Source of the DNA: a virus
Lineage: Duplodnaviria > Heunggongvirae > Uroviricota > Caudoviricetes
Strand: one strand, 5' to 3'
Length of the DNA stretch: 22,386 bases
Virus record (IMG/VR): IMGVR_UViG_3300029653_000080
In this document: positions 2,322 through 22,262 of the stretch, in pieces
How positions within the stretch are numbered: the stretch's first letter is position 1
How the letters are laid out: every line of letters starts with the position of its first letter
Made by a program: the position numbers and the translations under genes
The notes under the pieces: model-generated
Told to the model about the DNA's origin: nothing
Databases searched by the model: none
What the model saw: only the letters and a program-made list of their open reading frames with translations

Positions 2322-5300
2322 ATGACCACTGTGAATAAAAAGTTAAAAAAAACTGCATCTGGCGCGATTACATGGTCGGTAATTGTTACCCAGATATTAT
2401 CTCCAGTTTCTCTTTCTTTGATCCCAGCAAACAGTTTTGCATCATCTGGTAATAAAGATGTTACGCAAACTTATGCCAGCGATGAGCATGCAAATAAAGT
2501 GGCCTCATTTGCAGCAAGTGCAGGTCAGAGCCTGGCGAATAATAATGCAAGTAGTTTTGCTGTAAATACTTTATCAACTCAGGGGACAAAAGAGGTCGTC
2601 GACTGGTTGCAACAATATGGCAATGCGCGCATCAAGCTTAATGTCGATGATTCTTTTTCCTTGAAGGATTCATCATTCGACTTTTTATATCCATGGCTGG
2701 ATACTCAGGATTATGTGTTATTCAGTCAGACATCACTACATCGTACTGATGACCGAAATCAGACCAATATTGGTTTGGGGATTCGTCATTTCACTCCTGA
2801 TAACGCAATGTTGGGTGCGAATGTTTTTTATGATTACGATTTAAGTCGCAGTCACTCTCGTGCAGGTTTTGGGGTTGAGTACTGGAGGGATTATTTCAGG
2901 CTTGGTGTAAATACCTATTTTGGTCTATCTGACTGGAAGAACAGTCGGGATATTGATGATTATCTGGAAAGACCTGCAAATGGCTGGGATTTTTCTGCTG
3001 AAGGATGGCTACCTGCTTATCCGCAATTAGGGGCATCTATTCAGTTTGAAAAATATTATGGTAAAAATGTCGGGTTATTTGGAAGCGATAACCTTCAGGA
3101 AAACCCTTACGCAGTTACTGGGGGAATTTCTTATACACCAGTTCCTCTGATTAAGTTTTCTGCACAGCATAAGCAAGGACAGAGCAACGTTCACGATACA
3201 ACCTTCGGTGTTGAGTTTAATTATCGCCCGGGCGTTTCCCTGGCTGAACAGCTTAGCAGCGATAATGTTGCAGTTATGCGAGAAGTCCAGAATCGGCGTT
3301 ATGATTTTGTTGAACGAAATAACAACATTGTTCTGGAGTACAAGAAGAAGCATGCACTGAAAATCAGTTTGCCAGAGTCTGTTCAGGGGGAGGGGGAATC
3401 AATCATCCCTGTAACACTGACAATCAACAATGCTAGTGGTGGTATCAAGTCTGTACAGTGGAATGATAGTGCATTCACTGCGGCTGGCGGCAAGATCAGT
3501 GGAAATGGCACATCATGGCAGATCACTTTACCGGCTTATAAAAGCGAAGGTGTAAATTCGTGGAATGTTGGAGCCACAGTCCAGGATAACAGAGGCAATG
3601 TTTCCAACTATGCCGTTATGAATATCAGCGTTAATAATAGTGGTGTCTCGACAGCGGATTCATCTTTTACGCTGGATGGGGATTCGTCTCCGACGATCTC
3701 TGCTGATGGTCAATCCACTTATCCAATAGTATTAAGCCTGAAAGACAGTAACGGTAAGGCATTAACCGGACTGGCTGATGACATTGAAATGTCTGTGGAA
3801 TTTACTGCGGATAGCAATAGTGCTCGACAGCGTGAAACGGTAACTGCTCCGTCATTAGGCGCGGTAGAGGAAATCTCTGCTGGTGTATATCGCTCTGTTC
3901 TGGCTGCTGGTTCGCAGGCTGGGACGGTACGTGTAACTGCAAAAGTTCAGGGAAAAACATTTACTCTCAGTATTAAGCAAACAGCAGCAACAGAACCTGA
4001 TTCTGAGGTCAGTGCTGTTTTAACCGCTGCACCAGCAGAACAGGTAGTTGGTTACAATATCAATCTACAACTGGCAGTGAAGGATTCACAAGGAAATGCA
4101 ATCACTGGTGATAACACTCTGAGCTTTTATGCTCTTAACCAGGCAGAAGGAGTCGAGTTTGGGACTGTAACGGAAAAAGACGGTGTCTATAGCGCGACAG
4201 TAACTTCAAAACGAGCTGGTAAGATTACTATCGGTGTTAAATCTGATAGTCATGATTTCTCAGGTGTTAAGAAAGAAATCACCTTTATTGAGGACCGGCA
4301 GCAGGTTACATTCTCTCAGTTTGAAGCCAGCCAAAATAATGCATTGGCTGATGGAAAACAGAGAAATATGGTAACTGTAAGCCTTGCGGACCGTTTCGGC
4401 AATGTTGTTCCTGGTTATGCTGTCACATTGTCTTTACCAGCAGGGATAACTCAAGTTGGTGGTGAACATGCTGTTTCAACTGACGAAAATGGTAATGCTA
4501 TTTTTGCGTTAATAAGCTCCACTCCGGGGTCTTACGTGATTACAGCTCATGCTGGTTCTCAGATGTCTACTGAGTTAACAGTGACCTTTGCATCAAATAT
4601 GACCGGAGCTTCACTGTCACTGACGCCTGAAAGCAGTAGTTTAATTTCCAATATTCCTGCTAATGGTAAGGATGCAGCGGTATTAGATGTGCAGCTGACA
4701 AATACGAATGCGTCGGTCAATGGGCAAAAGATTCAGCTCATCACCTCATCTGAAGGATTATCTGTACCAACAAATATCGTGACTGATTCAACAGGGCATG
4801 TTTCTGTTCCGCTTACAACGGTGAAAGCTGGTGAGTACACGGTGACTGCACGGGTGACTGACGGTTCCCATAGCGTGGAATCTGGCAGCGTTAAGTTAAC
4901 TTTTGTGCCCGATGTTGCTTCTGCAGAACTTACTATGAGTGTATCAAAACAGGAGATTGTGGCCGATGGCAGTGAAAACGCAACAGTAAACATTCAGTTG
5001 GTTGATGCGAATAACAATGCGTTTACAGGTGAGGTGGATTTAACGATTACACCATCGACGGGAGCATCATTGACCAGTAGTAATCTGCAACTGGATGCTC
5101 ATGGACAGGCAACAACGCAGTTCACTGCATCGAAATCAGGCCAGTACACAATTCAGGCCGAGTATGTTCTGGATGGGAAACGCATAACCGCAAGCCAGAA
5201 TATTGATGCCGTGACGGATGTGAAGGGGGCTGTGTTGGAGATCACATCATCTGCATCTTCGGCTGTAGTGAGCGATACCAACAATCTGGTATTTACGTTA

Positions 5301-5873
5301 CTGTTGAAAAGTAAGTCAGGCGAAGCATTAAGTGGTCGAGCATTGAATGTTAAGACATCTGGGCCGTCTAAATATGGTGCGTTGGTGGTTGATAAAACCA
5401 CAGTAACGACTGATGAGAACGGTCAGGCTACGGTAAGCGTACATGGTCGAACGGTTGGTTCGTATAAATTAACGGCGACCTTAAACGAACTTGGCAGTGA
5501 TGTTAGCGCGGTGAAATCATTCTCCCTGTACGCTGATGACGCAAATGGAGTATTGACTCTAACAAAAGATCCTGGTTATGAGACAAACGATGGCTCTCCA
5601 GTAGGTATTTATGCTCGATTTGTCGATCATTTTGGAAACCCATTATCTGGTACGGTTGAGTTTTCTGCTGGTAGTGAAGATAGTCCAGACTCTCAACGGG
5701 TCAAAATGGAGCCTGCTACAGTAACGTTACACTGGACAGGTAATGCAGCTTCGGAATTCAGCACCTATGAAAGTGGTTATCACTGGATTAAGGCCAAAAT
5801 AACGAATAGCAAAAATACATATGAGAAAACAATAAGGACTTATGTTGTAAAACTACCTGAAAAGGATAGTTAA
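2322..5873 (+). CDS. Inverse autotransporter (invasin/intimin-family, type Ve) adhesin with repeated bacterial Ig-like (Big_1-type) domains; no LysM domain
   Basis: Long N-terminal signal (…SLIPANSFA). The beta-barrel region (DWLQQYGNARIKLNVDDSFSLKDSSFDFLYPWLDTQDYVLFSQ...ERPANGWDFSAEGWLPAYPQLG...NPYAVTGGISYTPVPL...DFVERNNNIVLEYKKK) closely parallels the Yersinia invasin beta-domain. About 8 Ig-like repeats follow. AT-rich codon usage. Confidence 0.85.
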   Translation: MTTVNKKLKKTASGAITWSVIVTQILSPVSLSLIPANSFASSGNKDVTQTYASDEHANKVASFAASAGQSLANNNASSFAVNTLSTQGTKEVVDWLQQYGNARIKLNVDDSFSLKDSSFDFLYPWLDTQDYVLFSQTSLHRTDDRNQTNIGLGIRHFTPDNAMLGANVFYDYDLSRSHSRAGFGVEYWRDYFRLGVNTYFGLSDWKNSRDIDDYLERPANGWDFSAEGWLPAYPQLGASIQFEKYYGKNVGLFGSDNLQENPYAVTGGISYTPVPLIKFSAQHKQGQSNVHDTTFGVEFNYRPGVSLAEQLSSDNVAVMREVQNRRYDFVERNNNIVLEYKKKHALKISLPESVQGEGESIIPVTLTINNASGGIKSVQWNDSAFTAAGGKISGNGTSWQITLPAYKSEGVNSWNVGATVQDNRGNVSNYAVMNISVNNSGVSTADSSFTLDGDSSPTISADGQSTYPIVLSLKDSNGKALTGLADDIEMSVEFTADSNSARQRETVTAPSLGAVEEISAGVYRSVLAAGSQAGTVRVTAKVQGKTFTLSIKQTAATEPDSEVSAVLTAAPAEQVVGYNINLQLAVKDSQGNAITGDNTLSFYALNQAEGVEFGTVTEKDGVYSATVTSKRAGKITIGVKSDSHDFSGVKKEITFIEDRQQVTFSQFEASQNNALADGKQRNMVTVSLADRFGNVVPGYAVTLSLPAGITQVGGEHAVSTDENGNAIFALISSTPGSYVITAHAGSQMSTELTVTFASNMTGASLSLTPESSSLISNIPANGKDAAVLDVQLTNTNASVNGQKIQLITSSEGLSVPTNIVTDSTGHVSVPLTTVKAGEYTVTARVTDGSHSVESGSVKLTFVPDVASAELTMSVSKQEIVADGSENATVNIQLVDANNNAFTGEVDLTITPSTGASLTSSNLQLDAHGQATTQFTASKSGQYTIQAEYVLDGKRITASQNIDAVTDVKGAVLEITSSASSAVVSDTNNLVFTLLLKSKSGEALSGRALNVKTSGPSKYGALVVDKTTVTTDENGQATVSVHGRTVGSYKLTATLNELGSDVSAVKSFSLYADDANGVLTLTKDPGYETNDGSPVGIYARFVDHFGNPLSGTVEFSAGSEDSPDSQRVKMEPATVTLHWTGNAASEFSTYESGYHWIKAKITNSKNTYEKTIRTYVVKLPEKDS

Positions 5874-9462: not shown

Positions 9463-10545
9463 TTAGAACTGATAAACCAGACCTACAGCGACGATGTCGT
9501 CGGTATCAATACCAGCTGTTTTGGTAAACTTACTATCGTCAATTAAGTTGATTTTGTAATCAACAAAAGTGGACATGTTTTTATTAAAGTAGTAAGTAGC
9601 ACCGACATCGACATACTTGACTAAGTCTCGGTCACCATGAACACCAAGGTCTTTACCTTTTGACTGAAGGTAAGCAACAGATGGTCGCAGACCGAAGTCA
9701 AACTGATATTGTGCTACTGCTTCAAAGTTTTGTGCTTTGTTTGCAATATGGTTATTACCAAAAACGGTCATATTCTGAGTTTCAGAATATGTGGTAGCCA
9801 GATAGATATTGTTCGCATCATATTTCAGGCCTGCAGCCCATACTTCCGCATTTTTGCCGGAGGCATTGAATTTGCTCTTACCATAGGCGACCTGACCGTC
9901 AGTGCGATCTGATTTAGCATAGGTTGCACCCACGCCGAATCCTTCATACTCATAAGTAGTGGAGAAACCGAAACCATCACCATTGGCTTCAGTTACGTCA
10001 GTGCGGTCATTTTTACCCTGATACTGAGCAGCAAAGTTCAGGCCATCGACCAGACCAAAGAAGTCGTTGTTACGATAAGTTGCAACACCAGTAGTGCGAC
10101 CAGTCATGAACACATCTGTTTGGGTCCAGGTATCACCACCGAATTCTGGCAGGACGTCAGTCCACGCACCGATGTCGTATGCTACACCGTAGTTACGGCC
10201 GTAATCGATTGAGCCGTAATCACCAAATTTCAGGCCTGCAAATGCAAGACGGGTTTTGTCTTTGGAAGAACCTTGAGATTCAGCACGGTTGCCTTTGAAT
10301 TCATATTCCCACTGACCGAAACCAGTCAGTTGATCGTTGATTTGGGTTTCACCTTTGAAGCCAAGACGGGCATAAGTAGTATCACCATCATCTGCATCAT
10401 TAGAGGAGAAGTAGTGCTTGGCATTAACTTTCCCGTATAGATCCAGCTTGTTACTGTCTTTATTATAAATTTCAGCTGCCTGAGCAGACATCGCCATCAG
10501 TACTGATGCAGCTACAGCAGAAATTGCCACTGTTAATTTTTTCAT
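9463..10545 (-). CDS. nmpC: Outer-membrane general porin, OmpC/OmpF/NmpC family, apparently intact
   Basis: 360-aa ORF with signal peptide [23 protein letters not shown] and C-terminal ...VAVGLVYQF; matches E. coli NmpC as recalled, at the same Q-to-holin position as in DLP12. Confidence 0.9.
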
Positions 10546-11134: not shown

Positions 11135-11350
11135 ATGAAATCCATGGATAAGTTAACAACGGGTGTCGCCTATGGCACCTCAGCAGGTAGTGCCGGGTAC
11201 TGGTTTTTACAGTTGCTCGATAAAGTCACGCCCTCACAGTGGGCGGCAATAGGTGTGCTGGGTAGTCTGGTATTTGGCTTGCTGACGTATCTGACAAACC
11301 TTTATTTCAAGATTAAAGAAGATAAGCGTAAGGCTGCGAGAGGTGAATAA
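11135..11350 (+). CDS. S: Class II pinholin, S21 type
   Basis: 71-aa [74 protein letters not shown], closely matching phage 21 S; stop overlaps the next ATG (TAATG). Confidence 0.9.
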
Positions 11351-14300
11351 TGTCGCCATCATTACGCAAGGCTATTGCTGCTGCTATTGGTGGTGGGGCT
11401 GTTGCCATAGCGTCTGTGCTCATCACTGGTCCGAGTGGTGACGATGGCCTGGAAGGTGTCAGCTACATACCATACAAAGATATTGTTGGTGTATGGACTG
11501 TATGTCACGGGCATACAGGAAAAGACATCATGCTCGGTAAAACGTATAAAGGCAGCAGTAAGGGGCATACCCCGCGCGAAGCGAAGGACAACCTGAAATC
11601 CACGCAGTTACTGAGTGTGATCGATGCCATCAGCGAAGGGCCGATTGAAGGTCCGGTGGATGGGTTAAAAAGCGTGCTACTGAACAGTACGCCGGTGCTG
11701 GACACTGAGGGGAATACCAATATCTCCGGTGTCACGGTGGTGTTCCGGGCAGGTGAGCAGGAGCAGACTCCGCCGGAGGGGTTTGAATCCTCCGGCTCCG
11801 AGACGGTGCTGGGTACGGAAGTGAAATACGACACGCCGATCACCCGCACCATCACGTCGGCAAACATCGACCGTCTGCGTTTTACCTTCGGTGTGCAGGC
11901 ACTGGTGGAAACCACTTCAAAGGGTGACCGGAATCCGTCGGAAGTTCGCCTGCTGGTTCAGATACAGCGTAACGGTGGCTGGGTGACGGAAAAAGACATC
12001 ACCATTAAGGGCAAAACCACCTCGCAGTATCTGGCCTCGGTGGTGGTGGATAACCTGCCTCCGCGCCCGTTCAATATCCGGATGCGCAGGATGACACCGG
12101 ACAGCACCACAGACCAGCTGCAGAACAAAACGCTCTGGTCGTCATACACCGAAATCATCGATATGAAACAGTGCTACCCGAACACGGCACTGGTCGGTGT
12201 GCAGGTGGACTCGGAGCAGTTCGGCAGTCAGCAGGTGAGTCGTAATTATCATCTGCGCGGGCGCATTCTGCAGGTGCCGTCGAACTATAACCCGCAGACG
12301 CGACAATACAGCGGTATCTGGGACGGAACGTTAAAACCGGCATACAGCAACAACATGGCCTGGTGTCTGTGGGATATGCTGACCCATCCGCGCTACGGCA
12401 TGGGGAAACGTCTTGGTGCGGCGGATGTGGACAAATGGGCGCTGTATGTCATCGGCCAGAATTGCGACCAGTCGGTGCCGGATGGTTTTGGTGGCACGGA
12501 GCCGCGCATCACCTGTAATGCCTGGCTGACCACACAGCGTAAGGCGTGGGATGTTCTCAGTGATTTCTGCTCGGCGATGCGCTGTATGCCGGTATGGAAC
12601 GGGCAGACGCTGACGTTCGTGCAGGACCGGCCGTCGGATAAGGTGTGGACCTATAACCGCAGTAATGTGGTGATGCCGGATGATGGCGCGCCGTTCCGCT
12701 ACAGTTTCAGCGCCCTGAAGGACCGCCATAATGCCGTTGAGGTGAACTGGATTGACCCGGATAACGGCTGGGAGACGGCGACAGAGCTTGTGGAGGACAC
12801 GCAGGCCATTGCCCGTTACGGTCGTAACGTCACGAAGATGGATGCCTTTGGCTGTACCAGTCGGGGGCAGGCACACCGAGCCGGGCTGTGGCTGATTAAA
12901 ACGGAACTGCTGGAAACGCAGACCGTGGATTTCAGCGTGGGCGCAGAAGGGCTTCGCCATGTGCCGGGCGATGTTATTGAAATCTGCGATGATGACTATG
13001 CGGGTATCAGCATCGGCGGGCGCGTGCTGGCGGTGAACAGCCAGACCCGGACGCTGACGCTCGACCGTGAAATCACTCTGCCATCCTCCGGTACCACGCT
13101 GATAAGCCTGGTTGACGGAAGCGGCAATCCGGTCAGCGTGGAGGTCCAGTCCGTCACCGACGGCGTGAAGGTAAAAGTGAGCCGGGTTCCTGACGGCGTT
13201 GCCGGATACAGCGTGTGGGGGCTGAAGTTGCCGACGTTGCGCCAGCGCCTGTTCCGCTGCGTGAGTATCCGTGAGAACGATGACGGCACGTATGCCATCA
13301 CTGCCGTGCAGCATGTACCGGAAAAAGAGGCCATCGTGGATAACGGGGCGCACTTTGACGGCGACCAGAGCGGCACGGTGAATGGTGTCACGCCGCCAGC
13401 GGTGCAGCACCTGACTGCCGAAGTCACCGCAGACAGCGGGGAATATCAGGTGCTGGCGCGCTGGGACACGCCGAAGGTGGTGAAGGGGGTGAGCTTTATG
13501 CTTCGCCTGACCGTGGCAGCGGATGACGGCAGTGAGCGGCTGGTCAGCACGGCCCGGACGACGGAAACCACATACCGCTTCACGCAACTGGCGCTGGGGC
13601 GGTACACGCTGACAGTCCGGGCGGTAAATGCGTGGGGGCAGCAGGGCGATCCGGCGTCGGTATCGTTCCGGATTGCCGCACCGGCAGCACCGTCGAGGAT
13701 TGATCTGACGCCGGGCTATTTTCAGATAACCGCCACGCCGCATCTTGCCGTTTATGACCCGACGGTACAGTTTGAATTCTGGTTCTCGGAAAAGCGGATT
13801 ACCGATATCAGGCAGGTTGAAACCACAGCCCGCTATCTTGGCACGGCGCTGTACTGGATAGCTGCCAGTATCAATATTAAGCCGGGCCATGATTATTATT
13901 TTTATATCCGCAGTGTGAATACTGTTGGCAAATCGGCATTCGTGGAGGCTGTCGGTCAGGCGAGCGATGATGCTTCCGGCTATCTGGATTTTTTCAAAGG
14001 CCAGATAACTGAATCCCATCTCGGCAAGGAGCTGCTGGAAAAAGTCGAGCTGACGGAGGATAACGCCAGCAAACTGGAGGAGTTTTCGAAAGAGTGGAAA
14101 GACGCCAACGATAAATGGAATGCCATGTGGGGCGTCAAAATTGAGCAGACCGAAGACGGCAGGCATTATGTCGCGGGTATTGGCCTCAGCATGGAGGATA
14201 CGGAGGAAGGCAAACTGAGCCAGTTCCTGGTTGCCGCTAACCGTATCGCGTTTATTGACCCGGCAAACGGGAATGAAACGCCGATGTTTGTGGCGCAGGG

Positions 14301-14940
14301 CAACCAGATATTCATGAACGAAGTGTTCCTGAAGTATCTGACGGCTCCCACCATTACCAGCGGCGGCAATCCGCCGGTATTTTCCCTGACACCGGACGGG
14401 CGGTTGACGGCGAAAAATGCCGATATCAGCGGTAACGTGAATGCGAACTCAGGGACGCTCAATAATGTCACGATTAACCAGAACTGTCGGATTCTGGGAA
14501 AACTGTCTGCCAACCAGATTGAAGGTGATATTGTCAAAACGGTGGGAAAAGCCTTTCCGAGAAATGGCAGTTATGCCAGCGGTACAATAACGGTCACTGT
14601 GTACGATGACCAGGCTTTTGACCGTCAGATAGTAATCCCACCCGTTCTGTTTCGCGGTGGTAAGCATGAAAACTTCAACAGCAACAACCAACAGTCATAC
14701 TGGTATTCAACCTGTAAGCTGCAGGTACTGAAGAACGGACAGGAAATCTTTCAGCAACCCGCGACGGATGTCAGCAGGGTATTTTCATCCGTCATTGATA
14801 TGCCAGCGGGACACGGCCATGTCACCCTGACTTTCAATGTTTCTTCATATGGTGCAAATAACTGGACGCCAACGACCAGTATCAGCGACCTTCTTGTTGT
14901 CGTGATGAAGAAATCAACAGCCGGTATCAGTATCAGTTGA
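11350..14940 (+). CDS. Chimeric ORF: N-terminal 66 codons of a SAR endolysin (R21 type, signal-anchor-release domain) fused in frame to codon 3 onward of a lambda-type tail-tip host-specificity protein J; C-terminal about 150 aa of J diverge from lambda
   Basis: Residues 1-66 [66 protein letters not shown] match the R21 SAR endolysin N-terminus. From [36 protein letters not shown]... the sequence is near-identical to lambda J from residue 3. Junction at about nt 11547. Confidence 0.85.
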
Positions 14941-14998: not shown

Positions 14999-17060
14999 AT
15001 GGCAGTACAGATTTCAGGCGTGCTGAAAGACGGTGCAGGAAAACCAATACAGAACTGTACTATTCAGCTCAAAGCAAAGCGTAACAGCACCACGGTACTG
15101 GTGAACACGGTGGCCTCTGAAAATCCGGATGAAGCCGGGCGTTACAGCATNNNNNNNNNNNNNNNNNNNNNNNNNNNNNNNNNNNNNNNNNNNNNNNNNN
15201 NCGCCTTCACATGCCGGGACCATTACCGTCTATGAAGGTTCCAGACCAGGTACGCTGAATGATTTTCTCGGTGCCATGACGGAAGATGATGTCATGCCGG
15301 AGGCATTGCGTCGTTTTGAGGTAATGGTGGAGGATGTGGCACGCAACGCTGAAGCCGCCTCTCAGAGCGCAGCGGCAGCAAAGAAATCAGAAACAGCAGC
15401 GGCATCGTCCAGGAACGCGGCGAAAACATCAGAGACGAATGCAGGTAACAGCGCGAAAGCGGCAGCTTCTTCAAAAACAGCCGCACAAAACGCAGCAACA
15501 GCGGCAGAACGTTCAGAGACAAATGCCCGTGCGTCAGAAGAAGCCTCCGCAGACAGTGAAGAGGCTTCCCGCCGTAATGCAGAGTCAGCCGCTGAAAATG
15601 CCGGAGTCGCCACCACAAAAGCGCGGGAGGCTGCAGCAGACGCAACAAAGGCCGGGCAGAAAAAGGATGAGGCTCTGTCGGCAGCGACACGAGCTGAAAA
15701 GGCGGCAGACCGCGCAGAAGCCGCAGCGGAAGTGACTGCAGAGCCCTATGCGAATATAGTGCCGCCGCTGCCTGATGTGTGGATACCGTTTAACGATTCA
15801 CTGGATATGATTGCGGGTTTTTCTCCGGGCTATAAAAAAATAGCTATTGGTGACGATGTGGTTCAGGTCGCCAGTGATAAACAGGTTAATTTCAGTCGCG
15901 CATCAACGGCAACATATATCAACAAATCTGGCGAACTGAAAACGGCGGAAATTAATGAGCCGCGATTTGAGTGTGATGGCCTGCTTATTGAGGGACAAAG
16001 AACGAACTACATGCTCAATTCGGAAAGTCCAGCCAGCTGGGGGAAGTCATCAAACATGGATGTGCCCGAAACCGGGACGGATAGTTTTGGTTTTACTTAT
16101 GGAAAGTTTGTCTGCAACGATTCTCTGGTTGGGCAAACTTCGGCTATTAATATGGCATCAATTGCTGCAACAAAGTCAGTTGATGTCTCAGGCGATAACA
16201 AGTACGTGACAACCTCATGCCGTTTTAAAACAGAACGACAGGTAAGGTTACGTATACGGTTTGATAAGTATGATGGTAGTGCAACAACTTTTCTTGGCGA
16301 TGCGTACATTGATACGCAAACGCTTGAAATTAATATGACAGGTGGTGCTGCCGGCAGAATTACGGCACGAGTCAGGAAGGATAAGACCACGGGCTGGATT
16401 TTTGCAGAGGCAACGATTCAGGCAATTGATGGTGAGTTAAAAATAGGCTCTCAGATACAGTATTCTCCTGAGCAGGGTGGGGCAACAGTATCTGGTGACT
16501 ATATTTATCTTGCCACCCCACAAGTAGAGAATGGGCCGTGTGTATCATCATTTATTATTTCAGGAGGCAGCGCAACGACAAGAGCCAGTGATTTGGTTAG
16601 TATCCCCACCAGAAATAATCTTTATAAGTTACCATTTACTTTTTTACTTGAGATTCATAAAAACTGGGATATTGCACCAAACGCCGCACCCCGCGTGTGG
16701 GATATAGCAGCAGCCAATACCGGGCAATCAGCAATTGCAGCAATCAACAGAGGTAGTGGTAAGTTATATATGAGTCTGTCAAACCCTTCAGGCTCGTATG
16801 TTAATAGCGCAGCGACAGATGTATTTGCAGAGAAAACCACATTTGGATGTATTGCAAAAGCTGATGGTCACTTTCATGTGGTGACAAATGGTAAAGCGGT
16901 TAATGAAGTTTATTGTGAATATAATGGCGTGACCGCTGATAAAAATATCCGATTTGGAGGGCAGACGAATACTGGAGAACGACATCTGTTTGGCCATATT
17001 CGCAATTTCCGCATATGGCATAAAGAATTAAATGACAGGCAATTAAAAGAGGTCGTATGA
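14999..17060 (+). CDS. stf: Side tail fibre protein (Stf-like): lambda-Stf-type N-terminus, Ala-rich central repeats, lectin-like (LamG / concanavalin-type) C-terminal region; interrupted by an assembly gap
   Basis: N-terminus MAVQISGVLKDGAGKPIQNCTIQLKAKRNSTTVLVNTVASENPDEAGRYS...PSHAGTITVYEGSRPGTLNDFL parallels lambda Stf. C-terminus ends ...NIRFGGQTNTGERHLFGHIRNFRIWHKELNDRQLKEVV, the typical end of Laminin_G_3-type domains. A 51-N run breaks the frame; track ORFs 14993..15235 and 15129..17060 are the two parts. Confidence 0.8.
15151..15201. other. Assembly gap / masked bases (51 N) inside stf
   Basis: Run of n characters. Flanking codons match lambda Stf on both sides with about 17 codons missing, and the N count is not frame-preserving, so the length is a placeholder. 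Confidence 0.95.
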
Positions 17061-17335
17061 AAGATTTAACTTTGAAGTTTCATGACAAACTGCAGTTTAA
17101 GGCCTTCCTGTCATCTCTTGGCTGGGCGGAAGATGAAGACCTCCAGAATAAACTGTTAGTTGATGAAATTGGTTTCACCTACACAGAAACAGGGGTAACA
17201 GAAGAGGGAGAACCTGTCTGTATCCGGAATGATGGTTATTTTGTCAACATTCGCATTCTTGATGACTTGTTTGATGTTTCTGTATTCTCTGATTATGTCG
17301 TGGAGCTGGAAACACCGCTTCGGGAATGGAGCTGA
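17057..17335 (+). CDS. Hypothetical acidic 92-aa protein translationally coupled to stf (tail-fibre accessory candidate); not Tfa-like
   Basis: ATG overlaps the stf stop (ATGA); RBS AAGAGG upstream. Sequence MKDLTLKFHDKLQFKAFLSSLGWAEDEDLQNKLLVDEIGFTYTETGVTEEGEPVCIRNDGYF... has no signal peptide and no family I recognise. Confidence 0.55.
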   Translation: MKDLTLKFHDKLQFKAFLSSLGWAEDEDLQNKLLVDEIGFTYTETGVTEEGEPVCIRNDGYFVNIRILDDLFDVSVFSDYVVELETPLREWS

Positions 17336-17347
17336 AAGGAGGAAATA

Positions 17348-17788
17348 ATGGATATAAGCCCCTTACTTCATGCACTTTGTGCTGTGGCTGCGCAGATACT
17401 GGTTGGTCTTTTTACCGGAAACTGGGCTTACGGAGCGATAGCCGGTTGTACGTTCTTCATTGCGCGTGAACATACCCAGGCAGAATATCGCTGGATTGAA
17501 ATGTTCGGGCATGGCAAGCGAATGAATATGCCGTGGTGGGGCGGTTTTGATCCGCGTGCTTGGGATGTGGCAAGCCTGATGGATTTTGCTGTGCCGGTGG
17601 TGGCGTGTCTGCTGGTCTGGCTGTTGGTTAATCGTGGGCGAAAAAAGGTGAGCTGTATATGCAACGGAGGAAGAAACCCCGTTGCTGGAAGCCAGGAAAA
17701 AGTATCGGGTGTTGCTGTCCTCGGATGTTGTGCTAATTGGGTGATAACAGATCCTGTGTATGGGAGTTTCCCTTTTTGCGTGCGTTGA
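17348..17788 (+). CDS. Hypothetical inner-membrane protein (about 3 predicted TM helices); the C-terminal about 45 codons are doubtful and overlap the sitD 3' end
   Basis: Strong RBS AAGGAGG 6 nt before the ATG. Hydrophobic segments LLHALCAVAAQILVGLFTG, WAYGAIAGCTFFIA, ASLMDFAVPVVACLLVWLLV, then a basic NRGRKK; the Cys-rich tail overlaps convergent sitD. Confidence 0.5.
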   Translation: MDISPLLHALCAVAAQILVGLFTGNWAYGAIAGCTFFIAREHTQAEYRWIEMFGHGKRMNMPWWGGFDPRAWDVASLMDFAVPVVACLLVWLLVNRGRKKVSCICNGGRNPVAGSQEKVSGVAVLGCCANWVITDPVYGSFPFCVR

Positions 17789-18590
17789 TGCTGGTAACGG
17801 CAAACGTCATGATGAACAAAACCGCGAATAAGACGACAATCGTCGGAGCTGGTGCGCTGTCGATAAAAAAGGACAACCAGACACCAGTCATTGACACTAT
17901 TACCGATATGCCAGTCGCCAGTAGGAGCGCAATATGAAAGCGTTGTGTCAGGAGTACCGCAATGGCGCCAGGCGCAATGAGCAGAGAAATGGAGAGAATG
18001 ATACCTACCGCTTTCAGCGTCGCCACAATGGTCAGAGAGACCATGCACAGCAGCCCATAATGCAGCCATCTCGTATGCAAACCGCTTACCTGCGCCTGTT
18101 GATAATCAAAGCTGAACAGCAAAAAATCCCGCCATTTTACGCTAATAACAAGTGTAACCAGCCCGGCAATAATCATCGTCTGGATTATATCGCCGATGGT
18201 TATCCCGAGCATGTCGCCGAAAAGAATATGGTCAAGATGTACGTCTGGTTTGACTGCAATATACAAAATCAGACCTGCGGCAAACATGCCAGAAAAAACA
18301 ATCCCCATCACTGTATCTTGCTTGATTCGGCTGTTGTCTTTCAGGTATCCCGTCGCCACCGCGCAGAATACTCCGGCGACGAATGCCCCTGTAGCCAAAG
18401 GTAACCCCAGAATCCAGGCAAGCACGATGCCAGGAAAAACCGCATGACTCATCGTGTCACCCATCAGTGCCCAGCCTTTCAGGACCAGAAAGACCGACAG
18501 CAGCGCACAGGGTATGGAAACTACCAGTGAAATCAGCAGTGCGTGACTCATAAAGGTGAACTGCAGTGGCTCCAGTAATAATGCCATCAT
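17733..18590 (-). CDS. sitD: Mn/Fe ABC transporter permease SitD
   Basis: 285-aa polytopic permease; last gene of the four-gene minus-strand operon, start overlapping the sitC stop. Confidence 0.9.
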   Translation of the reverse strand: MMALLLEPLQFTFMSHALLISLVVSIPCALLSVFLVLKGWALMGDTMSHAVFPGIVLAWILGLPLATGAFVAGVFCAVATGYLKDNSRIKQDTVMGIVFSGMFAAGLILYIAVKPDVHLDHILFGDMLGITIGDIIQTMIIAGLVTLVISVKWRDFLLFSFDYQQAQVSGLHTRWLHYGLLCMVSLTIVATLKAVGIILSISLLIAPGAIAVLLTQRFHIALLLATGISVIVSMTGVWLSFFIDSAPAPTIVVLFAVLFIMTFAVTSINARKKGNSHTQDLLSPN

Positions 18591-19444
18591 GAGCGATCCT
18601 CCAGCGCCTTATGCGCACGCCGACGATTTGCCAAAAGCCCATGGGTGGGCGCAAAGACAAATGCTAAAAGAAACAGCAGTGTCTGCGCCACCACGATGAT
18701 TCCACCTGTCGCGCCGTCCAGAAAGTAACTGACCCACGCGCCGAGGAAACTGGTTACACTGCCAATAGTTACAGCAATCATGAGCAGGCGGGGAAAACGA
18801 TCGGTTAACAACCATGCTGTTGCTCCGGGAGTCACCACCAGACAGATCACCAGAAAGGCACCAACCGTTTGCAGCGCCGCAACGGTCGAAACCGACAGCA
18901 GGGTGAAGAAGAGGAGTTTTAATCTGCCCGGATGCAATCCAATAGCACGGGCGTGATTCTCGTCGAAAAAGGTCACCATAAGATCTTTCCATTTGAAAAA
19001 AAGCACGATGATCGAGAGAATGCCAATGATAGTGAGTTGCAGGATATCCGCCGGATCGATTGCCAGAATATTGCCCAGGACGATGGTCTGAATGTTCACA
19101 GATGTCGGGTTCAATGACACCATAAACAGCCCCAGGCCAAAAAAGGACGAGAAGATCAGGCCGATGATGGCATCTTCTTTTAAGCGGGTGCGTTGGTTAA
19201 GAAACAGCATGCTGCCCGCAGCCAGTCCGCCGGAAAAGAAGGCTCCCAGAGAAAACGGAAGCCCCAGCATATATGCCCCCGCAACACCCGGGACAATAGA
19301 GTGCGACAACGCATCGCCAATCAGCGACCAGCCTTTTAGCATCAGATAGCATGACAGGAAAGCGCAGAGACCGCCGACCATCGCCGAGACCCACATCGCA
19401 TTGAGCATATATTCATAGCTGAAGGGTTCCAGTAGCACGTTCAT
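18587..19444 (-). CDS. sitC: Mn/Fe ABC transporter permease SitC
   Basis: 285-aa permease paralogous to SitD; start and stop overlap neighbours by 4 nt. Confidence 0.9.
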
Positions 19445-20268
19445 CTTTCTTCCCTCTGCACCGCTGACGGTCGATGAGCCACAAAAGGGCGTTCATCGTC
19501 AGTAATAATGCTTTCTTCCGAGCCGTTAAGTGTGACATGGCGCAGTACGCCGCTAAAAGCCAGCTCCAGGTTCTCGGCTGTAAAAGTGGTGTCTGTCGGC
19601 CCGCTTGCCAGGACGGTGCCTTTGACCATGACCGTATAATCGCAAAATGTCGTGACGGATCCGAGATTGTGCGTTGAGACAAGCATCGTTTTGCCTTCCG
19701 CGCGTAACTCCCTCAACAGGCTGATGATTTTGGCTTCGGTTTTCACATCAACGCCAGTAAAAGGTTCATCCAGCAGGATCACATCACCCTGCTGTGCAAT
19801 CGCTCTCGCCAGAAAGACGCGTTTCTTTTGTCCACCGGAAAGCTCGCCGATTTGTCGATGGCGAAAATTCACCATATCGACACGTTCCAGCGCATCGGTG
19901 ACAATTTGACGATCCCTCTTTTTGGCGATACGCAACATACCCATATGCCCATAGCGGCCCATCATCACCACATCTTCCACCAGTACAGGAAATGACCAGT
20001 CAACCTCTTCTGACTGAGGGACGTAGGCAACCAGGTTTTTCTGTAACGCCTGTCGCGTGGGAATACCCAGAACAGATATCTTTCCGCTGGTCAGACGCAC
20101 AAATCCCATAATCGCTTTAAACAACGTCGATTTTCCGGAACCGTTTACCCCAACCAGAGCGGCAATAGATCCACTTGGTACTGTGAAGGATGCATCGCGC
20201 AGTGCTGTGTGCCCGTTACGCCAGGTGACAGCAACATCATTAACGACAATGCCTGCAGATTGCATCAT
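19441..20268 (-). CDS. sitB: Mn/Fe ABC transporter ATP-binding protein SitB
   Basis: Walker [13 protein letters not shown] signature LSGGQKKR, Walker B ILLDEP. Confidence 0.92.
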
Positions 20269-21182
20269 TATTTCTCCCTTTTCCCGGCTTTAATTCCCTG
20301 TACCAGCGTACTGGTAGTAACCTTAAGAAGGTCGATATACGTCGGTACCGGGCCGTTTTCTGTGCTCAGGGAATCGACATAGAGCACACCGCCGTAGTGT
20401 GCGCCGGTTTCACGCGCAACCTGACGCGCTGGTTTATCGGAAATCGTACTCTCGCTAAAGACTGCCGGGATATGATTTTTCTTAACTATATCAACAACCT
20501 TACGTACCTGCTGCGGTGTTCCTTGTTGATCGGCATTAATCGGCCACAGATAAAGCTCTTTTAGCCCCAAATCGCGTGCGAGATAAGAAAAAGCCCCTTC
20601 ACTGGTGACCATCCATCGCTGATTCTCAGGGAGTTCCGTAATCTGCTTACGCAGGGGGGCAAGGGTTTGGGTAATCTTGGCTTTATAAGTATCGGCATTG
20701 CGTTGGTAGGTTTGTGCATTTGCCGGATCGTATTTTATCAACGCATCACGAATATTATCGACGTAAATCAGAGCATTATCTGGCGACATCCATGCATGGG
20801 GGTTAGGTTTGCCCTCATAGGGTCCTTCGGTGATCCCTACAGGCGTCACACCCGAAGAGACAATTACTTCTGGAACCCCATTGAGATGCTGGTAAAAGCG
20901 TTGGAACCACAATTCCAGATTCATACCATTGGCGAGAATCAGTTGTGCCCCCTGCGCACGTTTAATATCGCCAGGGGTAGGCTGATACTCATGAATTTCT
21001 GCACCAGGCTTGGTTATGGATGAGACTTCTGCAGCATCTCCCGCCACGTTTTTGGCCATATCCGCGATGATGGTAAATGTTGTAATGACCTTAAATTTTT
21101 CAGTTGCACTTGCCTGAAATGCGATCGAGCAGGTGAGTGCGAGGCCCCCCAAGAGCATGGTTACTTTTTTTATTGAGCGCAT
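20268..21182 (-). CDS. sitA: Periplasmic metal-binding protein SitA (cluster A-I substrate-binding protein)
   Basis: 304 aa with signal peptide [26 protein letters not shown]; first gene of the operon. Confidence 0.9.
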
Positions 21183-21214
21183 AATTTAGTACCTATAGTG
21201 AGCAAAATTAGAAC

Positions 21215-21236
21215 AAACATAGCAACGGCTATGTTT
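21215..21236. promoter_or_regulatory. MntR operator-like palindrome in the sitA promoter
   Basis: AAACATAGC-AAC-GGCTATGTTT, a perfect inverted repeat of AACATAGC, the core of the MntR box, 33-54 bp upstream of the sitA start. Confidence 0.65.
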
Positions 21237-21258
21237 TATAGCATAACCTATACAGAAT

Positions 21259-21277
21259 GAAAATGATTATCATTAAC
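21259..21277. promoter_or_regulatory. Fur box in the sitA promoter
   Basis: gaaaatgattatcattaac matches the 19-bp Fur consensus GATAATGATAATCATTATC at 16/19 positions. Confidence 0.65.
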
Positions 21278-21375
21278 ATCTTTGAGGCCCAAAACAGGGA
21301 TTAGTTTGTTTCCTGCTGGATGAAAGGACTCTTGGGATAGCACATGCCGCACGAAGAGCAGCATTACATGATGTT

Positions 21376-21615: not shown

Positions 21616-22097
21616 AAATTATATCAAGTACGAACAAACTTAGTGACAAAAGACTACGAAAAATATAAAACAATTTTAGTATTAAGTAGAGAGAAATTTC
21701 GTTCTGCTAGGACGCAGCAATAGGTTCATGAGATTCTCTGATACTTGTTACCTTAGTAAGCCTTAAATTTTTAAAAATTCTTTTACGTCCACTCCTCGCT
21801 CATAACAGGCATTAACTACATTTATCTTCATTGGCTATGCAAGTCGTAATAAAAGGTGGGACAAAACTGAGACACATAAGCTCTCACAAAGGTCTGCAAG
21901 GCCTCACATGTATTGAGATGTTAATAAAATGTAGACTTGTAATTTTGATATAAATGGTAGATAAAACCTTTCCCCAAAATAAAAACGAACGTCAATGAAA
22001 TCAAATGGTTGAATAAAGTTGATTTTGGCTAATAAAAAAACAATAAAATAATTTTTATCATTAAATATCAATGACTTAAACTTAATGTTTTTATATA

Positions 22098-22262
22098 CTG
22101 CTGCGCCATATGGGCTGGACTGAAGCCGCAGACCTGATTGTTAAAGGTATGGAAGGCGCAATCAACGCCAAGACCGTAACCTATGACTTCGAACGTCTGA
22201 TGGAAGGCGCTAAACTGCTGAAATGCAGCGAGTTTGGTGACGCGATCATCAAAAATATGTAA
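22098..22262 (+). pseudogene. icd: Duplicated 3' end of icd (last about 54 codons of isocitrate dehydrogenase), icdC-like attR remnant
   Basis: Abrupt switch from AT-rich DNA to in-frame [54 protein letters not shown], which matches the E. coli Icd C-terminus as recalled; no upstream icd coding sequence. Confidence 0.85.

Follow-up and report, generated by a model that had tools for sequence, protein, structure and literature searches.

Among the described phages, phage 21 (OL657228; genome announcement, PMC9119081) carries a side tail fibre gene, a gene for 92 amino acids, a gene for a 97-residue 'putative membrane protein' and the convergent sitDCBA genes, in this order. The sitABCD operon has been described as the most frequent moron of lambda-type phages of the infant gut (PMC6969025). 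The gene for the 97-residue protein, the module to which it belongs and the sit moron are all already annotated or published. In the window analysed here, a stretch of DNA of 22,386 nucleotides (nt) from a virus of the Caudoviricetes (IMG/VR record IMGVR_UViG_3300029653_000080), the same genes follow each other in the same order and share the junction sequence of phage 21, to which positions 15202-21319 (6.1 kb) are 98.8% identical. Gene order and junction sequence both assign the locus to the phage-21-type sitABCD moron module. Two features distinguish it from phage 21. The gene for the membrane protein ends with TGA in phage 21, whereas the window has CGA followed by a tail of 49 codons; and the prophage in the window, unlike phage 21, is defective, with an R'-J' deletion and without head genes.

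In this study, we focussed on the resulting open reading frame (ORF) of 146 codons. We conclude that it is very probably a well-conserved phage membrane-protein gene of 97 residues which lost its stop codon by a single base change, so that its frame now continues across junk DNA as far as the sitD end; no evidence contrary to this account came up.

The 97-codon core

The ORF starts with ATG and extends from 17348 to 17788 on the plus strand (146 amino acids). It is preceded by the Shine-Dalgarno sequence AAGGAGG at 17336-17342 on the same strand, with a spacer to the ATG of 5 nt as read from the sequence; the phage 21 annotation puts the ribosome-binding site at the same position. The frame overlaps that of the convergent sitD (17733-18590, minus strand) by 56 nt. 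The strong ribosome-binding site, the position of the ORF and the extent of its overlap with sitD had already been pointed out in a preliminary description of the window, and all of them hold.

Residues 1-96 match positions 1-96 of the 97 positions of the profile phrog_1443 (E = 2.4e-58), a PHROG family without assigned function, and residues 1-97 are 100% identical to the 97-residue protein of phage 21 (CPT_21_24, UMO75439.1). A search of 5.8 billion proteins yielded 543 homologs, nearly all of them 90-105 amino acids long, and an exhaustive HMMER search gave 339 clusters at 50% identity in the same length range. A family alignment was made of 27 members from Escherichia, Salmonella, Citrobacter, Leclercia, Enterobacter, Aeromonas and Comamonas. 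It contains 27 invariant residues (D2, H8, Q16, G20, G29, C34, R40, E41, T43-I50, R58, M61, P62, G65-D68, W72, D79, P83 and C87), including the blocks AREHTQAEYRWI and MPWWGGFD, and all of them are present in the window sequence. Every aligned member terminates at most about 12 residues beyond the last helix. The ratio of non-synonymous to synonymous substitution rates (dN/dS) between the window gene and its relatives in E. coli phages is 0.14-0.26, from which the core is judged to be under purifying selection. For residues 1-97 AlphaFold2 predicts three helices (4-23, 26-53 and 74-96) with a mean predicted local distance difference test score (pLDDT) of 91.5. Hydropathy is highest at residues 4-24 and 73-96 and has a weaker maximum at 25-39. 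The core thus shares with phrog_1443 a full-length match to the hidden Markov model (HMM), the length, the helices and the invariant residues. Taken together, the full-length PHROG match, the homologs, the invariant residues, the dN/dS values and the confident model identify codons 1-97 (17348-17638, plus strand) as a real, selected gene. The earlier view that the first about 100 residues form a compact three-helix protein is thereby borne out. The same applies to the suggestion that only this part is native, the phrog_1443 profile and the phage 21 counterpart both being 97 residues long.

Could the ORF be a chance open frame rather than a gene? Neither the 97-residue nor the 92-residue protein has a match in Pfam, NCBIfam or PADLOC scans, and RefSeq labels the gene a pseudogene, as a chance frame might lead one to expect. 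The 543 homologs in 339 clusters at 50% identity, the invariance of 27 residues across genera, the low dN/dS and the strong ribosome-binding site make this explanation next to impossible. It is refuted for codons 1-97, and it is in effect true for codons 98-146. The first 97 codons agree with the length of phrog_1443 proteins (about 90-105 amino acids, ending near the last helix) and the ORF at 146 amino acids does not, its excess being due to the change from TGA to CGA. Conservation of the full 146 residues among homologs, which the preliminary description had named as an outcome that would speak against its view, is not observed.

Sub-threshold Pfam matches to the PhoR N-terminal domain in 5 of the 27 alignment members (E = 0.037) were judged to be noise from transmembrane composition. 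Sequence searches of the PDB with the single sequence and with the profile gave no match below E = 0.28. A literature search on the protein accessions, the PHROG identifier and phage 21 with sitABCD found no paper discussing the 97-residue gene. Among the metagenome proteins, P0002-P0004, P0007 and P0010 (190-194 amino acids) match the core at 95-100% identity. Their length equals that of the 92-residue gene, the spacer and the 97-residue gene together, and points to either fusion or a sequencing error at the stop codon upstream.

The lost stop codon and the read-through tail

At 17639-17641 the window has CGA (Arg), in contrast to the TGA found in each of the six comparison loci that carry the gene, and the sole difference at the native end is the T to C exchange at 17639. 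The 49-codon tail exists because of this stop-loss, and the apparent overlap with sitD is an accident of the read-through. On the evidence of homologs, structure prediction and composition, the tail (17639-17788, plus strand, including the stop codon TGA at 17786-17788) is non-native. It is made up of three pieces. The first (17652-17717, plus strand) is a remnant of the C-terminal part of a tail-fibre assembly (tfa) gene. Its frame is +1 relative to that of the ORF, which therefore reads it out of register; translated in this +1 frame it gives AVYATEEETPLLEARKKYRVLL, and the homologous stretch is labelled a partial Tfa by the Prokaryotic Genome Annotation Pipeline (PGAP); the product of the ORF is hence not encoded by the Tfa reading frame. 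The second piece (17718-17732) consists of 15 nt of sit 3' flank, left between the seam of phage and sit DNA and the sitD stop codon. The third (17733-17785) is antisense to the C-terminal end of sitD, and the frame is closed by the TGA at 17786, a chance stop. In the AlphaFold2 model of the 146-residue form the tail has a pLDDT of 35-51 and is devoid of secondary structure. No homolog covering the tail was found in the search of 5.8 billion proteins except for the cluster of 146 amino acids itself (P0001).

These data refine two statements of the preliminary description. The tail is Cys-rich (5 Cys in 49 codons) and non-native as proposed, its length having been put at about 45 codons. The basic patch NRGRKK at the end of the core is half an artefact: NRG is the end of the native protein, RKK are the first three codons of the read-through.

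The CGA allele is a minority allele. Among 1739 E. coli records carrying this sequence, 77 contain the exact CGA-bearing 61-mer, and most of the others differ from it by one base. A set of 80 loci from IMG/VR comprises 72 with TGA and 4 with CGA, all four of the latter adjoining sitD. At 95-99% identity there are 1634 records, in which every locus inspected has TGA. CGA carriers include the strains MS10711, MS10858, MS10860, MS8320, MS8324, MCJCHV-1, 09-02E and AVS0096, all of which belong to sequence type (ST) 1193 (PMC11488385); the complete genomes of all eight carry CGA. The allele is also found in one ST80 strain and one bovine mastitis strain. Each CGA locus inspected lies next to sitD and is annotated by PGAP/RefSeq as a pseudogene 'missing C-terminus'. 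The wording of this annotation needs correction, as the gene has lost its stop codon but no part of its C-terminus. The locus with the side tail fibre gene (stf), the 92-residue gene, the stop-loss and sitD is also present in two plasmid-labelled records, pMY504-2 (linear, 237 kb) and NZ_CP195449.1 (195 kb), which might represent large mobile elements or chromosomal contigs assigned to plasmids by mistake.

The allele persists in a successful clone and is present in no fewer than 77 complete genomes. This, the 205 member sequences of the 146-residue cluster and the undamaged core might be taken to mean that the 146-residue form is a functional, selected neo-protein. Its tail might then serve as an anchor or a regulatory element, or sit expression in ST1193 might be modulated by translation that runs into the 3' end of sitD. 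We consider this very unlikely. Clonal hitch-hiking accounts for the allele frequency, and relaxed selection is to be expected in a defective prophage without head and tail genes. The tail itself, composed of an out-of-frame tfa remnant and antisense sitD and predicted to be unstructured, is identical in sequence to untranslated DNA of the TGA carriers, so that its length is accidental; by our own arithmetic the chance of 49 open codons, (61/64)^49, is roughly 10%. The stop-loss is a derived mutation and reflects ordinary decay in a defective prophage resembling phage 21.

The phage/sit seam and the surrounding prophage

Homology to sit-free loci of the Qin type reaches position 17717, and homology to sit loci without the phage piece (E. 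coli W409, in a Rac-type context, and plasmid p32-4_A) starts at about 17706-17713. The comparison with sit loci lacking the phage piece, as proposed in the preliminary description, thus resolves the seam to 17713-17717, inside the interval 17640-17740 predicted there and 75 nt downstream of the native stop. It had also been suggested there that the original C-terminus was replaced when the sit genes were joined to the phage, and that a run of six A could host a frameshift. The seam does fall in the tail, and the A run exists (17641-17646). The native end ...LVNRG is kept in full in the window, however. Phage 21, S14 and Combat2C1, with a seam identical to that of the window, keep this end together with its stop codon, and in them the gene ends normally at 97 amino acids. 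As the seam is identical where the gene stops normally, it is unrelated to the tail. The length of the A run is the same in every locus fetched, the T to C exchange at 17639 remaining the sole difference. Replacement at the sit junction is ruled out by the retained native end and by the position of the seam beyond the stop, frameshifting by the constant run length; this whole explanation of the tail is extremely unlikely.

Some strains still have a longer phage/sit junction, from which that of the phage-21-type moron can be derived by a microhomology deletion of 255 nt. E. coli W409 has sitABCD in a Rac-type context (trkG, ynaK and a Lom fragment), without the stf, 92-residue and 97-residue genes. 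The sit cassette therefore occurs in more than one prophage background.

On the phage side of the seam, stf (15129-17060, plus strand) is the first gene of a tightly packed block formed with the 92-residue and the 97-residue gene. It matches Pfam phage_tail_N (6e-27) and Laminin_G_3 as well as the tail protein family phrog_1419 (3e-283), and is 98.8% identical to phage 21 from 15202 on. A run of 51 N (15151-15201) masks part of its N-terminal region and appears as a stretch of X in the translation. The start of the 92-residue gene (17057-17335, plus strand) overlaps the stf stop codon. Its product belongs to phrog_1361, which has no assigned function (E = 3e-42, profile positions 1-91 of 92), and has its counterpart in CPT_21_23 of phage 21. 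On the other side, sitD is the last gene of the convergent sitABCD operon for an Fe/Mn ATP-binding cassette transporter (17733-21182), as given by the RefSeq annotation of an identical locus and by the same operon in phage 21; homology to the sit-only locus of W409 and to the plasmid sit locus begins at 17718 or a few nt upstream.

A nearly identical region of FDAARGOS_536 is annotated in RefSeq and represents a defective prophage beside an icd fragment. It contains the replication gene P, an inverse autotransporter gene, nin genes, Q, an ompC-like porin gene, S, an R' fragment abutting J', stf and sit, with no head genes annotated between the R' and J' fragments. In the window, a single ORF of 1196 amino acids (11350-14940) appears to join the start of the endolysin gene (R') to the C-terminal part of the host-specificity gene J, which points to a large deletion of lysis, head and tail genes. 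The J' fragment of FDAARGOS_536 is further split by an IS4 element that is not present in the window. The cargo of the window includes a large inverse-autotransporter (intimin/invasin-like) gene (2322-5873), whose repeat number differs from that in FDAARGOS_536, and an ompC/nmpC-like porin gene between Q and S (9463-10545). By transfer of coordinates from FDAARGOS_536, an icd (isocitrate dehydrogenase) fragment is located at about 22095-22262, some 900 nt past sitA. This places the prophage at the icd attachment site, which phage 21 and e14 use as well. The FDAARGOS_536 record lists no integrase gene between sitA and the icd fragment, and the int end of the prophage appears to have been deleted.

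Position and possible function of the 97-residue protein

In lambda-type phages a receptor-binding-protein gene ends at the start of the 97-residue gene or overlaps it. Homologs occupy comparable positions in other phages. In the P22-like JEP4 and 611R6 the homolog lies between the tailspike gene and int, where P22 itself has its O-antigen conversion genes. In Aeromonas and Leclercia prophages of the P2/HP1 type it lies at the end of the receptor-binding-protein gene, in Halomonas phage phiHAP-1 (a VP882-like setting) it is flanked by tfa and the sheath gene, and on a virulent-phage-like Salmonella assembly contig of 160 kb it lies between two tailspike genes. In a Comamonas prophage it follows gpJ with a 72-residue gene in between; a PHROG scan of the genes after this homolog for a lysis cassette gave no informative match. 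A co-directional ORF of 346-1288 amino acids ends right at the homolog start in at least 28 of 37 diverse IMG/VR loci, and 7 of 10 such upstream ORFs sampled carry Pfam domains of receptor-binding proteins (Peptidase_S74, Tail_spike_N, Phage_tail_fib, Head_binding, pectate-lyase). The family thus occupies an accessory slot next to the receptor-binding-protein gene. Exceptions are a homolog in another mobile-element context, one in a jumbo Aeromonas phage and a stand-alone gene on the chromosome of Aeromonas rivipollensis (positions 5001-5309 of the locus), whose neighbours are genes for pirin, a RIO1 kinase and two lipid A acyltransferases, with phage genes absent within 5 kb. In many predicted prophage contigs (IMG/VR, locus length 5294) the last position assigned to the virus lies exactly 3 nt beyond codon 97; boundary callers, it follows, often take the 97-residue gene as the last phage gene.

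The recurrence behind receptor-binding-protein genes in several unrelated phage types would fit a role in the envelope or in superinfection exclusion, without proving it. We regard such a role of the core as possible, with rather less than even confidence. The protein would be an accessory factor of the inner membrane, its gene closing the late operon immediately behind that for the receptor-binding protein. It might act on the host envelope, for instance to prevent superinfection or to change a receptor-related step. A conserved polar surface (D2, H8, Q16, R40-E41, E46-R48, R58, D68 and D79) may bind a conserved host membrane component or ligand. Several findings weigh against this. No similarity in sequence or fold to any characterised exclusion or conversion protein, Cor, Llp, Imm, Sie, Z/fun, Gtr and Oac among them, was found. 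A crude scan of 16900-18000 revealed no sigma-70-like promoter, and no terminator was found by scanning the same interval; the missing promoter-like site and the tight coupling of the gene to the late genes indicate late rather than lysogenic expression. A homolog is present on the apparently virulent 160-kb Salmonella contig, and the A. rivipollensis gene stands alone. The topology is ambiguous, the three helices of AlphaFold2 standing against two transmembrane domains by TMHMM in the phage 21 annotation.

Alternatively, the core may serve the lytic cycle, as a late membrane factor tied to receptor-binding-protein function or, in the manner of a holin or antiholin, to lysis timing. Stop and start codons overlap or abut those of the upstream receptor-binding-protein gene in JEP4, phiHAP-1 and the Aeromonas and Leclercia prophages, which together with the missing promoter-like site and the tailspike context on the virulent-phage-like contig accords with this alternative. 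Class I holins such as lambda S and P2 Y are about 100 amino acids long with three helices, and the size and the three helices of the core, if all are membrane-spanning, recall them. The gene nonetheless stands alone on the Aeromonas chromosome and stays intact in degraded prophages that make no virions. Its product has no holin match in PHROG or Pfam, almost no charged C-terminal tail and a strongly conserved loop of 35 residues, and the phages concerned carry lysis cassettes of their own (for phage 21, PMC9119081). We consider a lytic function only slightly less likely than a role in the envelope or in exclusion; the remaining probability goes to some other function.

As stated, the finding of a lost stop codon matters little beyond an annotation detail. 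A 97-residue protein trailing receptor-binding-protein genes in many unrelated phages is nevertheless a reasonable candidate for an exclusion or host-range experiment. Speculatively, and with modest expectation, phrog_1443 might be a widespread class of inner-membrane factors which accompanies receptor-binding-protein genes in siphoviruses, podoviruses and myoviruses alike and might exclude other phages or modify receptor pathways through its conserved polar site. If this were true, the stop-loss allele, fixed in ST1193, would be a natural variant for testing phrog_1443 function.

Two groups of known systems invite comparison. With class I holins the protein shares a length of about 100 amino acids and three predicted helices. 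Unlike them, it is encoded outside the lysis cassette, has a long conserved inter-helix loop and natively ends in NRG. The holin-type lysis gene of the window prophage (essD) lies elsewhere in the prophage, while the 97-residue gene follows tail fibre genes. A holin identity was rejected on position, C-terminus and the lack of an HMM match. The second group consists of exclusion and conversion genes next to receptor-binding-protein genes, namely cor of phi80, N15 and T1, llp of T5, Z/fun of P2 (between G and FI) and gtrABC/oac of P22-like phages (between tailspike and int). Compared with these, the 97-residue gene is co-directional with and coupled to the gene before it, no separate promoter having been detected, and its product, unlike Cor and Llp, is without a lipobox. 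Like them, it sits directly after tail fibre, tailspike or tfa genes, and like theirs its product is small and predicted to be located in the membrane.
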